Shown one piece after another: positions 1 through 49,965 of a stretch of 64,000 nt of DNA; positions within the stretch are counted from its first letter, which is position 1; every line of letters begins with the position of its first letter. The DNA is taken from the NCBI RefSeq assembly GCF_030013205.1, contig NZ_CP122648.1; one strand, given 5' to 3'. The notes below the pieces were generated by a model. It saw nothing but the letters and a program-made list of their open reading frames with translations, ran no database searches and had not been told where the DNA came from. This DNA is from Escherichia coli. Its GTDB lineage: Bacteria > Pseudomonadota > Gammaproteobacteria > Enterobacterales > Enterobacteriaceae. The position numbers were made by a program, and so were the translations under genes.

Positions 1-38
1 GTTCAACACTTCAGCTATTTGTAAGGTTGTAATAGCAG

Positions 39-70
39 GTAGATGCCTGAATCTCTATTCAGGCATCTAC
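39..70. repeat. perfect 14-bp inverted repeat (stem-loop) upstream of the transporter gene
   Basis: gtagatgcctgaat-ctct-attcaggcatctac read directly; U-rich stretch follows on + strand. Confidence 0.5.
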
Positions 71-115
71 TTCTCCTGATTCTGATTTATCGCCGTGCAC
101 CTGATGGAGGAAAAA

Positions 116-1396
116 ATGAAGAAAATAAGTTTAACCACGATGATTCTTTTGGCGCTGGTACTTGGAATGATTATCGGCGTAGTGCTCAATAACACTGCTT
201 CACCGGAAACCGCAAAACTCTATGCGCAAGAAATATCGATATTCACGACGATTTTCTTACGACTGATAAAAATGATTATCGCTCCGTTAGTGGTCTCTAC
301 CCTGGTGGTAGGTATAGCTAAAATGGGCGATGCCAAAGCCCTTGGTCGTATTTTTTCTAAAACACTCTTTTTATTTATTTGCGCCTCATTGCTGTCAATT
401 GCCTTAGGCTTGATAACAGTAAATTTCTTCATGCCAGGCACAGGAATTAATTTTGTTGCACACGGAGCCGAAACCACCGGAGTGGTCGCGTCAGAACCCT
501 TTACGCTAAAAGTATTTATTTCGCATGCTTTCCCCACCAGCATTGTCGATGCCATGGCGCACAATGAAATTTTGCAAATCGTGGTGTTCTCAATTTTCCT
601 CGGCTGTAGCCTGACGGCGATTGGCGAGAAAGGCAGCGCCATCGTTCACGCCTTAGATTCACTGGCACATGCCATGTTAAAGCTCACTGGCTACGTCATG
701 CTCTTCGCTCCCCTGACCGTATTCGCTGCTATTTCAGCATTGATTGCTGAACGAGGACTGGCAGTTATGGTGAGCGCCGGGATCTTTATGGGTGAATTTT
801 ATTTCACCATGTTATTACTTTGGGTGCTGCTTATCGGTCTGGCCATCGTTTATGTTGGCCCCTGCATCAGACGCCTGACCCGCGCCCTTTCGGAACCCGC
901 CCTGCTGGCATTTACCACATCCAGTTCTGAAGCGGCTTTTCCGGGAACGCTTGAAAAACTGGAGCAATTTGGCGTTTCCCCAAAAATTGCCAGTTTTGTC
1001 TTACCCATTGGCTACTCATTTAATCTCGTTGGATCAATGGCCTACTGCTCCTTCGCCACAGTTTTCATCGCCCAGGCCTGCAATATCCATTTATCCATCG
1101 GTGAGCAAATCACCATGCTGTTGATCCTGATGTTGACCTCGAAAGGAATGGCTGGCGTACCACGCGCCTCAATGGTGGTTATCGCCGCCACGCTCAACCA
1201 GTTCAATATTCCGGAAGCGGGGCTGATCTTGCTGATGGGCGTTGATCCGTTCCTTGATATGGGGCGTTCAGCGACAAACGTCATGAGCAACGCAATGGGC
1301 GCTGCGATGGTGAGTCGGTGGGAAGGCGAACATTTCGGCGAGGGCTGTCGGGGTAAAGCATTAAAACCCAATGAATCGAACGTTGCTCTGCCCTGA
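116..1396 (+). CDS. dicarboxylate/amino acid:cation symporter (DAACS, DctA/GltP-like)
   Basis: ORF track 95..1396; GGAGG 5 nt upstream of ATG at 116; polytopic hydrophobic protein with serine-rich SSSEAAFPG motif typical of DctA/GltP family. Confidence 0.85.
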   Translation: MKKISLTTMILLALVLGMIIGVVLNNTASPETAKLYAQEISIFTTIFLRLIKMIIAPLVVSTLVVGIAKMGDAKALGRIFSKTLFLFICASLLSIALGLITVNFFMPGTGINFVAHGAETTGVVASEPFTLKVFISHAFPTSIVDAMAHNEILQIVVFSIFLGCSLTAIGEKGSAIVHALDSLAHAMLKLTGYVMLFAPLTVFAAISALIAERGLAVMVSAGIFMGEFYFTMLLLWVLLIGLAIVYVGPCIRRLTRALSEPALLAFTTSSSEAAFPGTLEKLEQFGVSPKIASFVLPIGYSFNLVGSMAYCSFATVFIAQACNIHLSIGEQITMLLILMLTSKGMAGVPRASMVVIAATLNQFNIPEAGLILLMGVDPFLDMGRSATNVMSNAMGAAMVSRWEGEHFGEGCRGKALKPNESNVALP

Positions 1397-1503
1397 GGGG
1401 GATCTTAAGCAATCAGAAGCCAATGACTACGCATTTTTATAAGCCGGATCATGAAGTTAGACGGCAATTAAGTAAAACTAACGTTTAAGGTGAAAAGTGA
1501 AAT

Positions 1504-3156
1504 ATGTCCAAACCATTTATCTGGCAAGAACCGTTTCTACAAAATAAAGACGGTACAGAATATACATTAATTAGCGATCAACATATTACAGTAACGGAAT
1601 TAGACGGCGAAGAAGTAATAAAAATCGCTCCTGAAGCATTAACGCTGCTTGCCCGGCAGGCATTTTATGAAGCCTCTTTTTTCTTACGTTCCGCTCATTT
1701 GCAACAGGTCGCCAGCATTCTTAACGATCCGCAGGCCAGTAGTAATGATAAATACGTTGCGTTGCAGTTATTACGTAATGCTGAAGTCTCAGCAAAAGGG
1801 GTATTACCCAACTGTCAGGATACCGGCACCGCAACTATTGTTGCCAGTAAAGGGCAACAGATATGGACTGGAGGTAACGACGCCAAAGCCTTAAGCAAAG
1901 GCATTTACACCACTTTTCAGGAAAATAATCTGCGCTTTTCACAAAATGCGCCGCTGGATATGTATACCGAAGTCAATACGCAAACCAATCTCCCGGCGCA
2001 GATTGATATCAGCGCTGTCGCTGGTGATGAGTACCATTTTCTCTGTGTTAATAAAGGGGGCGGCTCTGCCAATAAAGCCGCGCTTTATCAGGAAACCAAA
2101 TCCTTATTGCAACCAGAAAAACTGACCGCATTTTTAATCGAAAAAATGAAATCGCTGGGCACCGCTGCCTGCCCGCCTTACCACATCGCCTTTGTCGTCG
2201 GAGGGCTTTCAGCCGATCAAACCTTAAAAGTTGCCAAGCTGGCTTCTACGAAATATTACGACAATTTGCCCACCAGCGGAAACGAGCAGGGACAAGCATT
2301 CCGTGATATTGAGCTGGAAAAAGTGTTGCTCGAGGCCAGTCAGCAATTTGGTATTGGTGCGCAATTTGGGGGTAAATATTTCGCTCATGATATTCGCGTC
2401 ATTCGTCTGCCGCGTCACGGTGGCTCTTGCCCGATAGCTATGGCGCTCTCCTGTTCTGCCGATCGCAATATCAAAGCAAAAATTAACAAGCACGGTATCT
2501 GGCTGGAAAAACTCGAACACAATCCGGGGCAATATATTCCAGCCTCACTGCGGGAAGAAAATCACGCGCAACATGTACAACTGGATCTAAACCGTCCGTT
2601 GCGTGACGTGATGCAGGATCTCGCCAGATTACCGGTAGGCACCCGCGTGTCGTTAAGTGGTCCCATCGTAGTGGCACGCGATATCGCCCACGCCAAAATA
2701 AAAGCGCGGCTGGATAACGCCGAACCGATGCCGGATTACCTGAAGCATCATATTGTCTATTACGCTGGCCCGGCGAAAACACCGGAGAACATGGCCTGCG
2801 GTTCACTGGGTCCAACCACGGGCGGTCGAATGGACGGTTATGTCGATACCTTCCAGGCGGCTGGCGGCAGTCTGGTGATGTTATCGAAAGGTAACCGCAG
2901 CCAGCAGGTCACCGATGCCTGTCACAAACATGGTGGCTTCAATCTGGGTAGTATTGGCGGTGCAGCTGCGTTACTGGCGCAAGAATATGTCAAAAGTCTG
3001 CGTTGCCTGGAATACCCGGAGCTGGGTATGGAAGCGGTGTGGATGATGGAAGTGGAAAATCTGCCCGCATTCATCCTGGTAGATGATAAAGGCAATAATT
3101 TCTTTAGTCAGTTTGAGCAGCAACACCGCTGCGCCAGTTGCCCTGCGGGACATTAA
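1504..3156 (+). CDS. class I (Fe-S) fumarate hydratase family paralog; candidate mesaconase/fumarase
   Basis: 550 aa, colinear with remembered FumA/FumB along the whole length ([36 protein letters not shown] motifs); divergent enough to be a third paralog. Confidence 0.85.
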
Positions 3157-3165
3157 GGAAAATGA

Positions 3166-3768
3166 ATGGAAGCGCGAATTTCAACTGAACGGCATGTGCA
3201 GCGCCAGCAGAAATTGAAGGAACAGGTCGATACGCGCGTCGCGGCGGCGATAGAGAAAAAAGGGATTTTGATTGTTTTCACCGGCAATGGCAAAGGGAAA
3301 TCCACTGCCGCGTTTGGTACTGTGACGCGCGCGGTGGGTCATGGCAAAACGGTGGGGGTTGCGCAGTACATCAAGGGGCAATGGGACAACGGCGAATACA
3401 ACCTTCTCCAGCCGCTGGGGGTTGAGTTTCATATTATGGGAACCGGTTTTACCTGGGAGACACAGAACCGGCAAGCGGATATCGACGCGGCGAAAGAGGT
3501 CTGGTCGGAAAGCAAACGGATGCTGGCTGACAAGCGTTACGACTTAGTGGTGCTTGATGAGCTGACCTATATGCTGGCTTACCATTATCTGGACACCGAA
3601 GAAGTGATCGCTTCTCTGCAAAACCGCCCGGCACAACAAAGTGTCATTGTCACCGGACGCGGTTGCCACAGTCAGATATTAAAAATGGCGGATACGGTCA
3701 GCGAAATCCGCCCCGTCAAACATGCTTTTGATAACGGCATTCAGGCGCAGCCGGGTATCGACTGGTAA
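3166..3768 (+). CDS. cob(I)alamin adenosyltransferase, CobA/BtuR family
   Basis: 200 aa; P-loop FTGNGKGKSTAAFG and overall similarity to remembered BtuR; 9 bp after the fumarase-like gene. Confidence 0.8.
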   Translation: MEARISTERHVQRQQKLKEQVDTRVAAAIEKKGILIVFTGNGKGKSTAAFGTVTRAVGHGKTVGVAQYIKGQWDNGEYNLLQPLGVEFHIMGTGFTWETQNRQADIDAAKEVWSESKRMLADKRYDLVVLDELTYMLAYHYLDTEEVIASLQNRPAQQSVIVTGRGCHSQILKMADTVSEIRPVKHAFDNGIQAQPGIDW

Positions 3769-3801
3769 TAACTGCGCCTGGCATCCCGCCAGGCGCAGGT
3801 T

Positions 3802-4707
3802 TTACATCTCCTGCGGTACGACCGATTTCGCCAGCAACCATTCACGAAATTGCTGCAAGTGCGGCGAGTCAGACTTCTCTTCCTGCCACGTCATAATAAA
3901 ACGATTACCGGTACGAATAGGCACATCACAGGGAATCACCATATCGCCACTATCCAAATCATGTTGAATAGCGAACCGTGGTAACAGCGCCACGCCGAGA
4001 TTAGAGCGCACGGCGGCAATCAGCATTGAAAGCAAATCGAAACGTGGTCCGTTATTGACCAGCGGACTGCTAACGCCAGATAAAGCAAACCACTCTTCCC
4101 AGCCAGTAATACGGGTGCTTTGATGCAGAAGTGGTAACTCAGTAAGCAGTTCTGCCACTGACAGTTTTTGATCGGACATTGCAAGCAAACTGCCGCTGCA
4201 TACCGGCAAAATCTCCTCATCAAAGAGATATTCTACTTCCGCCCAGGGCGCGCAAAAATTTTCGCGCATAATGACAGCATCGTACTCCCGATTAAGAAAA
4301 TCGCCGTTATTAGCTAAAGAATGAATATTAACAATAATATCGGGATGTAACTTTGTGAATTCATGTAAATTTGGGATTAACCAGTGGGTACTAAAAGTAG
4401 GATTAACGGCAAGTTCAATAACCTGAACCGTAGGCTGCCAGGTCATAATGGTATTGGTATCGCGTTCCAGCTTATTTAATGTTTCTTTTACTATCCCCAG
4501 GTAATACTTCCCTGCATCATTAAGAAAAATACGTTTTTTAGAGTGTGAAAATAACGGAGTATGTAAAAATTCCTCCAGCGCACTCACTTGTCTGAATACA
4601 GCACTTTGGGTTAACGCTAACTCCTCTGCCGCTCTGGTATAACTTTCATGACGTGCGACGACCTCAAAAGTCACCAGCAGCTCCGTTTTAGGTATTTTTC
4701 CTCGCAT
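3802..4707 (-). CDS. LysR-type transcriptional regulator
   Basis: 301 aa; N-terminal HTH ...YTRAAEELALTQSAVFRQV...; convergent with the upstream 3-gene cluster. Confidence 0.85.
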   Translation of the reverse strand: MRGKIPKTELLVTFEVVARHESYTRAAEELALTQSAVFRQVSALEEFLHTPLFSHSKKRIFLNDAGKYYLGIVKETLNKLERDTNTIMTWQPTVQVIELAVNPTFSTHWLIPNLHEFTKLHPDIIVNIHSLANNGDFLNREYDAVIMRENFCAPWAEVEYLFDEEILPVCSGSLLAMSDQKLSVAELLTELPLLHQSTRITGWEEWFALSGVSSPLVNNGPRFDLLSMLIAAVRSNLGVALLPRFAIQHDLDSGDMVIPCDVPIRTGNRFIMTWQEEKSDSPHLQQFREWLLAKSVVPQEM

Positions 4708-5272
4708 AATGCCGTCCCTTAAAAATAGTTTAAACCATCAAAAATACATTACTTATTACGAAGTAATGGTAACCAAAGCAGCAATAAATAATTTATAAGA
4801 ATCATGATTGACATTTATAACCCAGTAAGCCTAGCGTGACAAATATCTTAATCAGATAATAATAATCCGAAAAGCACAGCGCCTTTCGAATTATCCGGAA
4901 TCACATTAAGTGAAAATTATTAAATTGATATCATTTATCATATCTGTGGATATTATGATAAACAATCAACAAAGATTTTATTTTTGATTTATAGCATATC
5001 CCTCTAAGAATTTTTGCGATGCTGCAATATCCGGGTAAAGACCCGATCCTGGCTGACAAATGGCACGACTTGACGATAAGCGGTGAACATCGCTTTTGTT
5101 GATTTACTTAACGCTACGGTCAAACGCTGGGAAGCCAGTGCATCAGGTAACGATTCGAAATTCGCCGTCGTTCTTATTCGTGGCTTGCGGTCGGTTGCGG
5201 CAATCCACAGTGGCTGTGGTCATGCAGTCAAGCCAGCGGTCAGATTTCGACCGTGGTTAACATTTAAGGCAT

Positions 5273-5371
5273 AAAAAAGGCCATCATACGATGGCCAACC
5301 ATGTCGAAACCGACAGCCCTTCGCCATTCCTGTAGAGGGAAGCGGCGAGGGCTATTTCTTATTACAGATAT
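5273..5371 (-). ncRNA. sdhX: sucD 3'UTR ending in intrinsic terminator; candidate SdhX-type 3'UTR-derived sRNA
   Basis: about 100 nt between sucD stop and hairpin ggccatc-ata-cgatggcc (5279-5296) followed by U-run on minus strand; SdhX occupies this position in K-12 (memory). Confidence 0.35.
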
Positions 5372-6241
5372 TTATTTCAGAACAGTTTTCAGTGCTTCAC
5401 CGATATCCGCCAGGCTGCGAACGGTTTTCACGCCTGCGGCTTCCAGAGCAGCGAATTTCTCATCCGCAGTCCCTTTCCCACCGGCAATGATGGCACCCGC
5501 GTGGCCCATACGTTTGCCTTTCGGCGCAGTTACACCAGCGATGTAACCTACAACTGGCTTGGTAACGTGCTCTTTGATGTACGCAGCCGCTTCTTCTTCA
5601 GCACTACCGCCGATCTCACCGATCATCACGATCGCTTCGGTCTGCGGATCTTTTTCGAACATTTCGAGGATGTCGATAAAGTTAGAGCCAGGGATCGGGT
5701 CGCCGCCGATACCAACACAGGTCGACTGACCGAAACCGTAATCCGTGGTCTGTTTAACCGCTTCATAGGTCAGTGTACCGGAACGGGAAACGATACCCAC
5801 TTTACCCGGTTTGTGAATGTGACCAGGCTGGATACCGATTTTGCATTCACCCGGAGTGATAACGCCTGGGCAGTTCGGGCCGATCATGCGAACGCCCGCT
5901 TCATCCAGTTTCACCTTCACGGTCAGCATATCCAGCGTCGGGATGCCTTCAGTGATGGTGATAATCAGTTTGATGCCTGCATCGATAGCTTCCAGAATGG
6001 AGTCTTTGCAGAACGGTGCTGGTACGTAGATAACAGAAGCGGTAGCGCCAGTAGCAGCAACAGCTTCACGCACGGTGTTGAACACCGGCAGGCCGAGGTG
6101 GGTGGTGCCGCCTTTACCTGGGGTTACACCGCCAACCATTTTAGTGCCGTATGCAATGGCTTGTTCAGAGTGGAAAGTCCCCTGGCTACCGGTAAAGCCC
6201 TGGCAGATAACCTTGGTGTTTTTATCAATTAAAATGGACAT
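5372..6241 (-). CDS. sucD: succinyl-CoA synthetase alpha subunit
   Basis: 289 aa, recognisable SucD sequence; stop/start overlap with sucC. Confidence 0.97.
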
Positions 6242-7407
6242 TATTTCCCCTCCACTGCGGCAACAACCTGCTGAGCTGCATCCGTCAGACCTTTTGCTGC
6301 AATAATATTCAGGCCGCTGTCAGCCAGTTTCTTCGCGCCGAGTTCGGCGTTGTTACCTTCCAGACGTACCACGACCGGTACGTTAACACCCACTTCCGCT
6401 ACCGCGCCAATGATACCGTCAGCGATCAGGTCGCAACGAACGATACCGCCGAAGATGTTAACCAGAACGGCTTTCACTTTGTCGTCAGAGAGGATGATTT
6501 TGAACGCTTCGGTTACACGTTCTTTGGTTGCGCCGCCGCCAACGTCCAGGAAGTTAGCTGGTTCGCCGCCGTGCAGTTTAACGATGTCCATCGTACCCAT
6601 CGCCAGACCTGCGCCGTTAACCATACAACCGATGTTACCGTCCAGCGCAACGTAGTTCAGTTCCCACTGTGCAGCTTGTGCTTCACGCGGATCTTCCTGC
6701 GACTGGTCACGCATTTCGCGCAGATCAGGCTGGCGGAACAGTGCGTTGCCATCAGCGCCCAGTTTGCCGTCGAGGCAAATCAGATCGCCCTGTTTGGTAA
6801 TGACCAGCGGGTTGATTTCGATCAGCGCCAGGTCGCGCTCCAGGAAAATGGTCGCCAGGCCCATGAAGATTTTGGTGAACTGCTGAACCAGTTTACCTTC
6901 CAGACCCAGTTTAAACGCCAGCTCGCGTCCCTGATACGGCATCGGGCCAGTCAGCGGATCAAGCGCAACTTTATGGATCAGGTGCGGAGTTTCTTCCGCC
7001 ACTTTTTCGATTTCCACGCCGCCTTCGGTGGAGGCCATAAAGACCACACGACGGGAACTACGGTCAACAACGGCACCGAGATACAGCTCTTTAGCGATAT
7101 CGGTCGCTGCTTCAACCAGAATCTGGTTAACCGGTTGGCCATTGGCATCTGTTTGATACGTTACCAGACGCTTGCCCAGCCAGTTTTCTGCAAAAGCACG
7201 GATGTCTTCTTTGCTGTTTACCACTTTCACACCGCCCGCTTTACCGCGGCCACCAGCGTGAACCTGACATTTCACTACCCACGGACCGGCACCGATTTTT
7301 GAAGCGGCTTCTTCTGCTTCGCGCGGAGTAGTACAGGCATAACCCACCGGTGCTGGTAAGCCATAGCGGGCAAAAAGTTGTTTTGCCTGATATTCATGTA
7401 AGTTCAT
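6241..7407 (-). CDS. sucC: succinyl-CoA synthetase beta subunit
   Basis: 388 aa [18 protein letters not shown]... Confidence 0.97.
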
Positions 7408-46614: not shown

Positions 46615-49291
46615 CGAACCCTTACGTCCCGACCCCGATCGTCTGCTGGAACAAACTGCCGCGCCGCATCGGGGGAAGCTGAAAGTTTTCTTCGGTGCCT
46701 GTGCGGGCGTCGGAAAGACCTGGGCGATGCTGGCAGAAGCCCAGCGACTGCGGGCGCAAGGGCTGGATATTGTGGTTGGCGTGGTTGAAACCCACGGGCG
46801 GAAAGATACCGCCGCAATACTGGAAGGGCTGGCTGTTCTGCCGCCCAAACGCCAGGCGTACCGTGGGCGGCATATCAGCGAATTTGATCTCGATGCCGCC
46901 CTCGCCCGCCGTCCGGCGCTGATCTTAATGGACGAACTGGCGCACAGTAATGCGCCAGGTTCTCGTCATCCTAAACGCTGGCAGGACATCGAAGAGCTGC
47001 TGGAAGCTGGCATTGATGTTTTCACAACCGTCAACGTTCAGCATCTGGAAAGTCTGAATGATGTGGTCAGCGGCGTCACCGGAATTCAGGTACGGGAAAC
47101 CGTGCCCGATCCTTTTTTCGATGCCGCCGACGACGTGGTGCTGGTGGACTTGCCCCCGGACGATCTGCGTCAACGGCTGAAAGAAGGTAAAGTCTATATT
47201 GCCGGGCAGGCGGAACGCGCCATTGAACATTTTTTTCGTAAAGGTAATCTGATCGCCCTGCGCGAACTGGCACTGCGCCGTACTGCCGATCGCGTTGATG
47301 AGCAAATGCGCGCCTGGCGGGGGCATCCTGGCGAAGAGAAAGTCTGGCACACGCGCGACGCGATCCTTTTATGCATCGGGCATAACACCGGCAGCGAAAA
47401 ACTGGTCCGCGCGGCGGCGCGGCTGGCGTCACGGCTGGGAAGCGTCTGGCACGCGGTGTATGTTGAAACCCCTGCCCTGCACCGCTTACCGGAGAAAAAA
47501 CGTCGGGCAATTCTCAGCGCCTTACGTCTGGCGCAGGAGCTGGGCGCAGAGACGGCAACACTTTCTGATCCAGCGGAAGAGAAAGCGGTAGTGCGTTATG
47601 CCCGTGAACATAATCTCGGCAAGATTATTCTCGGTCGCCCAGCCTCGCGCCGCTGGTGGCGTCGGGAAACGTTTGCTGACCGACTGGCGCGCATCGCCCC
47701 CGATCTCGATCAGGTGCTGGTCGCGCTTGATGAACCACCCGTCCGCACGATTAACAACGCGCCGGATAGCCGCTCTTTTAAAGACAAGTGGCGGGTACAG
47801 ATTCAGGGATGCGTGGTTGCCGCCGCGTTATGCGCCGTTATCACCTTAATTGCCATGCAGTGGCTGATGGCGTTTGATGCCGCCAACCTGGTGATGCTGT
47901 ATCTGCTTGGCGTGGTGGTGGTGGCGCTGTTTTATGGACGCTGGCCTTCGGTGGTTGCTACCGTCATTAATGTGGTGAGTTTCGATCTCTTTTTTATCGC
48001 CCCACGCGGCACGCTCGCCGTCTCTGATGTGCAATATCTGCTGACCTTCGCGGTGATGTTAACCGTCGGGCTGGTGATCGGGAACCTTACTGCGGGCGTG
48101 CGTTATCAGGCGCGGGTAGCCCGTTACCGCGAGCAACGCACACGGCACTTATATGAAATGTCGAAAGCACTGGCGGTGGGCCGCAGTCCGCAGGACATCG
48201 CCGCCACCAGCGAACAATTTATTGCCTCCACGTTTCATGCCCGCAGTCAGGTGCTGTTACCCGATGACAACGGTAAATTGCAGCCGTTAACACATCCGCA
48301 AGGAATGACGCCGTGGGACGATGCCATCGCGCAGTGGAGTTTTGATAAAGGCCTGCCTGCGGGCGCGGGCACCGACACGTTACCCGGTGTACCGTACCAG
48401 ATTTTGCCGCTAAAAAGCGGCGAGAAAACCTACGGGCTGGTGGTGGTGGAACCGGGGAATCTGCGCCAGTTGATGATCCCGGAACAGCAACGCCTGCTGG
48501 AGACGTTTACGCTGTTAGTCGCCAATGCCCTTGAGCGGCTGACACTGACCGCCAGCGAAGAACAGGCGCGGATGGCAAGCGAACGAGAACAGATCCGCAA
48601 CGCCCTGCTGGCGGCGCTTTCGCATGATTTACGCACGCCGCTTACGGTGCTGTTCGGTCAGGCAGAAATCTTAACGCTCGATCTGGCGAGCGAAGGATCG
48701 CCCCACGCCCGCCAGGCCAGCGAGATTCGTCAGCATGTGCTGAACACGACCCGACTGGTGAATAATCTACTGGATATGGCGCGAATTCAGTCCGGCGGCT
48801 TTAATTTGAAGAAAGAGTGGTTAACGCTGGAAGAAGTGGTCGGCAGCGCGCTGCAAATGCTGGAACCGGGTTTATCGTCGCCCATCAATCTTTCTCTGCC
48901 AGAACCGCTGACCTTAATCCACGTTGACGGGCCACTCTTTGAACGGGTGCTGATTAATCTGCTGGAGAACGCGGTGAAATACGCGGGTGCGCAGGCCGAA
49001 ATTGGTATCGATGCCCACGTTGAGGGCGAAAATCTACAACTGGATGTCTGGGATAATGGCCCCGGTCTTCCGCCAGGCCAGGAGCAGACGATATTTGATA
49101 AGTTTGCTCGCGGGAATAAAGAGTCGGCGGTACCGGGTGTAGGGCTTGGGCTGGCAATTTGTCGGGCGATTGTGGATGTACACGGCGGCACCATTACCGC
49201 GTTCAACCGACCGGAAGGTGGTGCCTGTTTTCGTGTTACACTTCCCCAGCAAACTGCCCCTGAACTTGAAGAATTTCATGAGGATATGTGA
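46607..49291 (+). CDS. kdpD: sensor histidine kinase KdpD
   Basis: ORF track 46574..49291; start [16 protein letters not shown] (894 aa); H-box SHDLRTPL. Confidence 0.96.
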
Positions 49292-49965
49292 CAAACGTTC
49301 TGATTGTTGAAGATGAACAGGCTATTCGTCGCTTTCTGCGCACGGCGCTGGAGGGCGATGGGATGCGCGTCTTTGAGGCCGAAACGCTGCAACGCGGCTT
49401 GCTGGAAGCGGCTACCCGTAAGCCAGATTTGATTATTCTCGATCTCGGCCTGCCCGATGGTGATGGGATTGAGTTTATCCGCGACCTGCGCCAGTGGAGC
49501 GCAGTGCCGGTGATTGTGCTTTCCGCACGTAGCGAAGAGAGCGACAAAATCGCCGCGCTGGATGCCGGAGCGGATGATTATCTGAGTAAGCCGTTTGGCA
49601 TTGGCGAATTGCAGGCCCGTCTGCGCGTCGCATTACGCCGCCACTCTGCCACCACCACGCCCGATCCGCTGGTGAAATTTTCCAATGTTACCGTCGATTT
49701 AGCGGCTCGAGTGATCCATCGCGGTGAGGAAGAGGTGCATCTCACCCCGATTGAGTTCCGCCTGCTGGCGGTGTTGCTTAATAATGCGGGAAAAGTGCTC
49801 ACCCAGCGCCAGCTCCTTAACCAGGTGTGGGGGCCAAACGCGGTCGAACACAGTCATTATTTGCGTATTTATATGGGGCATCTGCGACAAAAACTGGAGC
49901 AAGATCCCGCCCGCCCCCGCCACTTCATTACTGAAACCGGTATTGGGTATCGGTTTATGCTTTAG
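49288..49965 (+). CDS. kdpE: response regulator KdpE
   Basis: 225 aa; receiver domain plus OmpR-type winged helix. Confidence 0.96.
   Translation: MTNVLIVEDEQAIRRFLRTALEGDGMRVFEAETLQRGLLEAATRKPDLIILDLGLPDGDGIEFIRDLRQWSAVPVIVLSARSEESDKIAALDAGADDYLSKPFGIGELQARLRVALRRHSATTTPDPLVKFSNVTVDLAARVIHRGEEEVHLTPIEFRLLAVLLNNAGKVLTQRQLLNQVWGPNAVEHSHYLRIYMGHLRQKLEQDPARPRHFITETGIGYRFML

Follow-up and report, generated by a model that had tools for sequence, protein, structure and literature searches.

Which function is encoded next to sucD in those Escherichia coli strains in which the mng genes are missing from this position? This question is raised by the locus described here, which forms the beginning of a stretch of 64,000 nucleotides on contig NZ_CP122648.1 (assembly GCF_030013205.1), in the following termed the window. 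The window opens with genes for a DAACS-type transporter, a class I fumarase paralog (FumD), an ATP:cob(I)alamin adenosyltransferase (CobA) and a LysR-type transcriptional regulator, and continues with sucD. With a probability of roughly 0.85, we consider window positions 1–5264 to be the end, on the sucD side, of an accessory island of 14 kb with genes for the complete methylaspartate (mesaconate) pathway, by which glutamate is degraded. The system as such is already known: the gene cluster and FumD have been on record since 2015, and the citramalate lyase CmlAB via recent entries in the Protein Data Bank (PDB).

A preliminary description of this DNA reported a compact cluster of three genes on the + strand with a convergent LysR gene. 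This layout is confirmed by the list of open reading frames (ORFs), and all four products display strong family matches (Table 1). The transporter gene and fumD are separated by 107 bp (1397–1503), fumD and cobA by 9 bp (3157–3165); the LysR gene is convergent on cobA, with 33 bp between both stop codons. All four ORFs are intact, and their lengths equal those of their O157:H7 counterparts. The transporter ORF opens with GTG at position 95 (ORF span 95–1396, + strand), but translation almost certainly begins with the ATG at position 116: GGAGG precedes it at 106–110, the same start is annotated in RefSeq genomes, and the GGAG–ATG context is kept in four genera.

The genes upstream of the window were read from complete E. 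coli genomes that are 100% identical to window positions 1–5400, such as that of strain K_EC180. Directly upstream, K_EC180 carries glmS, glmL, glmE, a methylaspartate ammonia-lyase gene (mal), a gene for an AtuA-family protein and a gene for a DUF4387 protein; then come two hypothetical genes and cydA. The arrangement in O157:H7 strain 86-24 is the same. The module therefore starts outside the window, as the stop codon of the DUF4387 gene (cmlB) lies 46 nt before window base 1 in the identical genomes. It had been anticipated that the window begins inside the module and that more genes lie upstream, which is borne out by these six further pathway genes; the glutamate mutase/methylaspartate route, put forward on the basis of the window genes, is supported by glmS, glmL, glmE and mal. 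Methylaspartate ammonia-lyase (methylaspartase, Mal) and GlmL both pass the cut-offs of their NCBIfam equivalog models (TIGR01502 with 542 bits and NF040745 with 510 bits, respectively).

A citramalate lyase had also been expected upstream, probably one of the classical CitDEF type. This expectation holds in part: the AtuA-family/DUF4387 pair is present in the expected region, but it represents a different, two-subunit enzyme. Both proteins match chains A and B of PDB entries 9ERQ/9EVF end to end (965 and 193 bits), and these chains were named citramalate lyase subunit A (cmlA) and subunit B (cmlB) by the depositors. The AtuA-family protein is about 92% identical to the solved CmlA. According to a 2026 preprint, CmlAB of Raoultella planticola (a gift of the Berg laboratory) cleaves citramalate directly to pyruvate and acetate. 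By orthology to this structurally solved enzyme, the pair is identified as the putative citramalate lyase CmlAB of the island. The idea that AtuA/DUF4387 proteins act as citramalate lyase was first conceived by chemical analogy with the Atu pathway, and the PDB names show that it was already established. The two genes (L001 13271–14955; AtuA family is DUF1446) were listed with 'unknown function' in the 2015 paper discussed below, and their RefSeq names are still generic ('AtuA family protein', 'DUF4387 domain-containing protein'), so that annotation is behind the PDB. NCBIfam holds no model for either CmlA or CmlB. A literature search on DUF1446, DUF4387 and AtuA returned Kronen and Berg (2015) as the only relevant paper, and a primary paper on CmlAB was not found in the literature searched.

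From the identities of the glm, mal, fumD and CmlAB genes it follows that every step of the methylaspartate pathway is encoded on the island. We regard as established the gene content and gene order, the family memberships, the near-identity to a characterised FumD and the orthology to CmlAB. The following sequence of events is proposed. The DAACS transporter would import glutamate, which glutamate mutase (GlmS/GlmE, with adenosylcobalamin as coenzyme and GlmL to maintain its activity) would convert to (2S,3S)-3-methylaspartate. Methylaspartate ammonia-lyase would release ammonia to yield mesaconate, and FumD, as an oxygen-sensitive 4Fe–4S class I fumarase paralog, would hydrate mesaconate to (S)-citramalate, to be cleaved by CmlAB into pyruvate and acetate. 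The island CobA would turn salvaged cob(I)alamin into the adenosyl coenzyme of glutamate mutase, and the LysR regulator presumably activates the island genes on sensing a metabolite of the pathway.

FumD matches NCBIfam model NF011921 over residues 1–550 of 550 (1282 bits, cut-off 1060) and fails the FumA model (927 bits, cut-off 1105). The protein is 68% identical to K-12 FumA, and 542 of its 550 residues (99%) are identical to FumD of O157:H7 strain 86-24. In K-12 databases, the name 'FumD' also stands for YdhZ, an unrelated protein. Residues Cys104, Cys223 and Cys317 (in the motifs CQDTG, ACPPYH and SCSADR) correspond in the alignment to three cysteines of 5L2R, the structure of a Leishmania class I fumarase, that we take to be the ligands of its 4Fe–4S cluster. 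Linkage of the FumD orthogroup to glutamate mutase and methylaspartase genes is found in E. coli, Salmonella, Klebsiella and Citrobacter amalonaticus. FumD of O157:H7 (strain ATCC 700728, ECs0757), purified anoxically, was reported to display kcat/Km values of 2 × 10^6 M−1 s−1 for mesaconate and 7.5 × 10^5 M−1 s−1 for fumarate; mesaconate is thus favoured 2- to 3-fold in kcat/Km, and anoxic handling of the enzyme is needed (Kronen and Berg, PLoS One 2015; PMC4682846). These kinetics refer to the enzyme of ATCC 700728, and the sequence comparison to strain 86-24, from which the window FumD differs in 8 of 550 residues. They support the earlier suggestion that the fumarase paralog is a mesaconase, and with it the assignment of the window FumD as a putative mesaconase (mesaconate + H2O to (S)-citramalate).

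CobA exceeds the cut-off of TIGR00708 (246.6 bits, cut-off 167.75) and displays a full-length match (residues 6–200) to Salmonella CobA (1G5R), in which the P-loop GNGKGKS is aligned with GNGKGKT. It is 67% identical to K-12 BtuR, and its protein accession is the same as in O157:H7 strain 86-24. E. coli is unable to make B12 de novo and depends on external corrinoids. The need for an island-borne CobA would be explained by this lack of de novo synthesis. As judged from its sequence and position, CobA is a predicted dedicated second copy, which would supply adenosylcobalamin to glutamate mutase.

The position of the module directly beside sucD would also fit a plain fourth fumarase, with the three + strand genes forming a C4-dicarboxylate accessory to the sdh–suc operon of the tricarboxylic acid (TCA) cycle. 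The identity of FumD to FumA and its efficient hydration of fumarate (kcat/Km of 7.5 × 10^5; PMC4682846) point in the same direction. We consider this explanation extremely unlikely, as the catalytic efficiency is higher for mesaconate (PMC4682846), as C4 metabolism has no use for a B12 adenosyltransferase, as the gene next to the island in Klebsiella and C. amalonaticus is not sucD, and as the genes belong to an insertion with a sharp boundary that is absent from most E. coli genomes. The preliminary description placed mngR–mngAB after sucD in K-12 and saw none of these genes here. Both statements are correct: the order in K-12 is sdhX–mngR–mngA–mngB–cydA, and in the genomes identical to the window no mng gene lies between sucD and cydA. 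Homology to K-12 stops directly after the SdhX terminator, at about window position 5265, and is found again from about 370 bp ahead of the cydA start. Bounded in this way, the island comprises 13.96 kb (L001 6301–20264) and stands in place of the 5.9-kb mng segment. SdhX is a small RNA (sRNA) in the 3′ untranslated region of sucD, located at window 5271–5371 on the − strand; it is identical to K-12 up to the terminator, bar one base in the T-run. The SdhX terminator, located by alignment to K-12, is the exact boundary of the island.

For the distribution of the island, window 1–5400 was compared by megablast with a set of 5426 complete E. coli genomes. Of these, 1121 contain at least 80% of the query, which leaves about 79% of the genomes without the island; copies with 100% identity are found in swine enterotoxigenic E. 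coli (ETEC) and in O139:H1 strains. The fumD gene alone is likewise present in 1121 of the 5426 genomes, with 97.5–100% identity, and mngA in 3884. The two counts add up to 5005 of 5426, and therefore some genomes carry neither gene or both. The site between sucD and cydA must have further states besides fumD only and mngA only. One copy of fumD and one copy of mngA in the E. coli collection are located on plasmids.

All ten island genes are syntenic in Salmonella, Klebsiella and C. amalonaticus (loci L010, L008 and L012, respectively). In Klebsiella and C. amalonaticus, a glutaminase gene lies between the transporter gene and fumD. The Citrobacter island contains a TP_methylase (SumT) gene, and in C. 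amalonaticus the island stands beside mngR–mngAB, not in its place. A gene for an AraC regulator with a PocR domain adjoins the LysR gene in Salmonella and Citrobacter; a remnant of it was sought in window 4601–5400 by tblastn with E values up to 10, and none was found. The two hypothetical genes at the cydA-proximal end (314 and 140 aa; L001 6730–7674 and 7755–8177) lie inside the island boundaries. They have no NCBIfam match, and the examined islands of Klebsiella, Salmonella and Citrobacter lack them.

Table 1. Coordinates of genes and predicted elements at the sucD-proximal end of the island (window positions).
Feature	Position	Strand	Basis
Stem-loop, 16 bp perfect, between cmlB stop and transporter start	37–72	+	centroid fold, z = −3.3
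DAACS/SDF-family transporter, 426 aa ('GltP' of Kronen and Berg)	116–1396	+	ORF list, annotation
fumD, class I (Fe–S) fumarase paralog, 550 aa	1504–3156	+	ORF list, NCBIfam
cobA/cobO paralog, ATP:cob(I)alamin adenosyltransferase, 200 aa	3166–3768	+	ORF list, NCBIfam
G+C-rich hairpin between cobA and LysR stops	3772–3798		11-bp stem, 9 G–C pairs; −28.1 kcal/mol, z = −5.1
LysR-type transcriptional regulator, 301 aa	3802–4707	−	ORF list, Pfam
Non-coding sucD-proximal island end (LysR upstream region)	4708–5264		alignment and blastn against K-12
sucD	5372–6241	−	ORF list

The regulator contains the domains HTH_1 (PF00126, residues 9–67, E = 9.8e-17) and LysR_substrate (PF03466, residues 96–293, E = 5.8e-28). 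It stays outside the named NCBIfam regulator families, with 221.8 bits for its best match, the GcvA subfamily (cut-off 288), and 147 bits for DsdC (cut-off 316). The protein is identical to its counterpart in O157:H7 strain 86-24 at 298 of 301 residues, and its gene has the same position and orientation in Salmonella, Klebsiella and Citrobacter; we presume that it is the regulator of the island. A candidate for its operator, proposed on sequence conservation, is the block ATTTTGAAAATAGATCAATTGC, located about 100 nt upstream of the glmS ATG and outside the window (L001 8589–8610). The DNA around it is poorly conserved, but the block itself does not vary between E. coli, Salmonella, Citrobacter and Klebsiella; its core TGA-N7-TCA matches the T-N11-A form of LysR boxes, and a TATTAA element follows about 47 nt downstream. 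A search for more copies of TTGAAAATAGATCAA returned one relative with three mismatches, TTAAAAATAGTTTAA, at window 4719–4733 just upstream of the LysR ATG. An autoregulatory site is not claimed at this position, as 16 of 100 shuffled sequences matched as well.

Two hairpins were predicted in the module. The stem-loop ahead of the transporter gene has counterparts in the corresponding place in Klebsiella, Salmonella and C. amalonaticus; of the 23 pairs predicted for the stem-loop plus an outer helix, 10 are maintained by compensatory changes of both partners. It is probably an intercistronic terminator or attenuator, or a hairpin that stabilises the RNA. Given its covariation, the transporter gene, fumD and cobA may form a separately controlled segment. 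The G+C-rich hairpin between the stop codons of cobA and the LysR gene is probably a bidirectional terminator. An Rfam scan of window 1–6500 with E values up to 0.1 gave no matches, i.e. no riboswitch (cobalamin riboswitches included), and SdhX was not reported by it either. A scan of window 1–5400 for promoter consensus sequences yielded 5 sites, compared to a mean of 8.0 in shuffled sequences, and none of them is usefully placed.

The transporter is identical to its counterpart in O157:H7 strain 86-24 at 425 of 426 residues. Its membership in PF00375 (SDF) is taken from the precomputed assignment of the representative of its 100%-identical cluster (P0001), and it displays full-length matches to structures of the GltPh/GltTk type. 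The identity amounts to 40% with K-12 GltP and 34% with K-12 DctA. Transmembrane helix 8 (TM8) reads 'LDMGRSATN' in the transporter, 'LDMARTALN' in GltP and 'FMSEARALTN' in DctA. In GltPh structures, the Asp of TM8 binds the amino group of the substrate, and the Arg binds the side-chain carboxylate. As both residues are kept in a GltP-like manner and the Asp is missing in DctA, an acidic amino acid is favoured over a plain dicarboxylate. In Klebsiella and C. amalonaticus, a glutaminase gene directly follows the transporter gene, which agrees with glutamate being the compound that enters the pathway. We propose that the transporter is an importer of glutamate or of a related acidic amino acid.

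Some findings weigh against the assignment of the island to glutamate catabolism as outlined above. The transporter remains below the NCBIfam cut-offs for GltP (NF008440, 302 versus 638 bits) and for DctA (NF002461, 312 versus 513 bits); by its TM8 residues it resembles a predicted GltP-type carrier, yet it stands outside both equivalogs. The top match, both scores being below the cut-off, is marginally DctA. This would agree with a module for the uptake and breakdown of preformed C5 compounds (mesaconate, citramalate, 3-methylaspartate) instead of glutamate, with FumD and CmlAB as its core and a dicarboxylate or methylaspartate carrier as transporter. Class I fumarases of Burkholderia xenovorans serve mesaconate utilisation, according to a passage in PMC4682846, and the conserved hairpin that parts glmS–cmlB from the transporter gene, fumD and cobA would allow separate expression of the two segments. 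Nevertheless, we hold this explanation to be very unlikely. The transporter retains the Asp of the GltP-type 'LDMGR' motif, which is replaced in DctA; a glutaminase gene adjoins the transporter gene in Klebsiella and Citrobacter; and the transporter gene is linked to glmSLE in every genus compared (Salmonella, Klebsiella, Citrobacter). In addition, cobA, which is required for the mutase step alone, would be co-transcribed with fumD across the gap of 9 bp.

To the same side belongs an exchange in the NMDGT-type motif in TM7 of the transporter (residues ~303–310), where 'YSFNLVGS' stands in place of the 'YSFNLDG(S/T)' of K-12 GltP and DctA. The Asp replaced here is part of a cation site in GltPh. 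Val occupies this position in 119 of the 120 closest homologues, from Escherichia, Shigella, Klebsiella, Salmonella, Citrobacter and Enterobacter. Of 150 cluster representatives (50% clustering), which cover more distant homologues, 112 have a motif that can be recognised; the residue is Asp in 90 of these and Val in 11, and several of the 11 are fragments of the transporter's own orthogroup. Furthermore, the LysR gene is divergent from no operon, and its target is guessed solely from the conserved box. The CmlAB step rests on the molecule names in the PDB and on a preprint in which the enzyme was used.

The substrate of the transporter, the target and effector of the LysR regulator, and operation of the pathway in E. 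coli cells are matters on which we infer. The last of these is touched directly by published experiments: for O157:H7 strain ATCC 700728, no condition with expression of the pathway was found, and neither methylaspartase activity nor anaerobic growth on glutamate was detected, with or without cobalamins (PMC4682846). The island might thus be a cryptic cargo that is silent in E. coli and has lost its physiological role there, and the dependence of this species on external corrinoids, which is established knowledge, could be read in the same way. We consider such a loss of function unlikely. The four ORFs in the window are intact at O157:H7 length, fumD is kept at 97.5–100% identity in the 1121 carriers, and the regulatory elements are conserved across genera. 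In comparisons of window genes with Salmonella and Klebsiella, dN ranges from 0.08 to 0.14. The dN/dS ratio is at most 0.08 in the 4 of 8 comparisons in which dS is unsaturated, none of these four being a fumD comparison; dS is saturated in the other 4, both fumD comparisons included. Low dN/dS indicates purifying selection, which argues against a decaying, cryptic island. Kato and Asano described methylaspartase activity in other enterobacteria as early as the 1990s (cited in PMC4682846). Silence in E. coli may possibly be the physiological state under laboratory conditions.

A more far-reaching idea, which goes beyond the proposed pathway and appears unlikely, combines the peculiarities of the transporter with those of its regulation. 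The transporter could be a mechanistically distinct member of the DAACS family, with Val fixed in place of the cation-site Asp and the residues for acidic amino acids kept, and the island might then be a tightly gated niche factor for B12-dependent, anaerobic glutamate catabolism. If true, the transporter could couple with fewer cations, or act as a uniporter or as an exchanger of glutamate against a product. Together with the covarying hairpin and the invariant T-N11-A box, this would mean that the inducer of a gated island has so far escaped detection.

The view that this is a rare rather than an unknown system was right, as a cluster of GltP, FumD, CobA and LTTR was already drawn in Fig 5 of PMC4682846. 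According to the legend of that figure, the cluster comprises these four genes plus a DUF1446 gene downstream of mal. Kronen and Berg found glutamate mutase and methylaspartase genes in 26.5% of E. coli genomes and in 90.6% of O157:H7 genomes, co-localised with a fourth class I fumarase that they named FumD (PMC4682846). The fate of citramalate was not known in 2015 (PMC4682846); the CmlAB structures now close this gap. In the literature searched, the Sakai locus tags of the cluster occur in Kronen and Berg only. The present analysis thus carries little weight as a discovery, but it makes a useful annotation point: about one fifth of complete E. coli genomes, including O157:H7, swine ETEC and O139 strains, carry genes for all steps of a B12-dependent route by which glutamate is turned into pyruvate and acetate. 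The timing of expression, the effector of the LysR regulator and the substrate of the transporter bear on gut colonisation by pathogenic enterobacteria. Elsewhere in K_EC180, the closest complete genome (window ~17961–20419 and ~49285–49961), the annotation lists ybgQ (fimbrial usher), ybgO and kdpE as pseudogenes with frameshifts, and ybgA and ybfA are separated by an Rhs element that contains IS fragments.

Among known systems, the O157:H7 island (compared strain 86-24) is the closest: it has the same gene set, gene order and cydA–sucD site, and the system is the one seen here, in a different lineage of E. coli and with allelic differences only, e.g. at 8 of 550 FumD residues. The orthologues of CmlAB (9ERQ, 9EVF) are the AtuA/DUF4387 proteins of the island outside the window, the solved proteins being from another enterobacterium. 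K-12 FumA/FumB, BtuR and GltP/DctA are paralogs of the island proteins and not orthologs, and the Fe–S ligands of FumD are the same as in FumA. The clostridial cluster of C. tetanomorphum and C. tetani (glmS–mutL–glmE–mal–mesAB–citDEF) follows the same chemistry from glutamate to pyruvate and acetate and has glutamate mutase, GlmL/MutL, methylaspartase and a mesaconase of the class I fumarase type in common with the island. However, the clostridial mesaconase is split (MesAB) and the citramalate lyase is an acyl-carrier enzyme of the CitDEF type, whereas the island encodes a fused FumD of 550 aa and an unrelated AtuA/DUF4387 lyase. In comparison to the clostridial cluster, the enterobacterial island adds its own CobA, a DAACS transporter and a LysR regulator.

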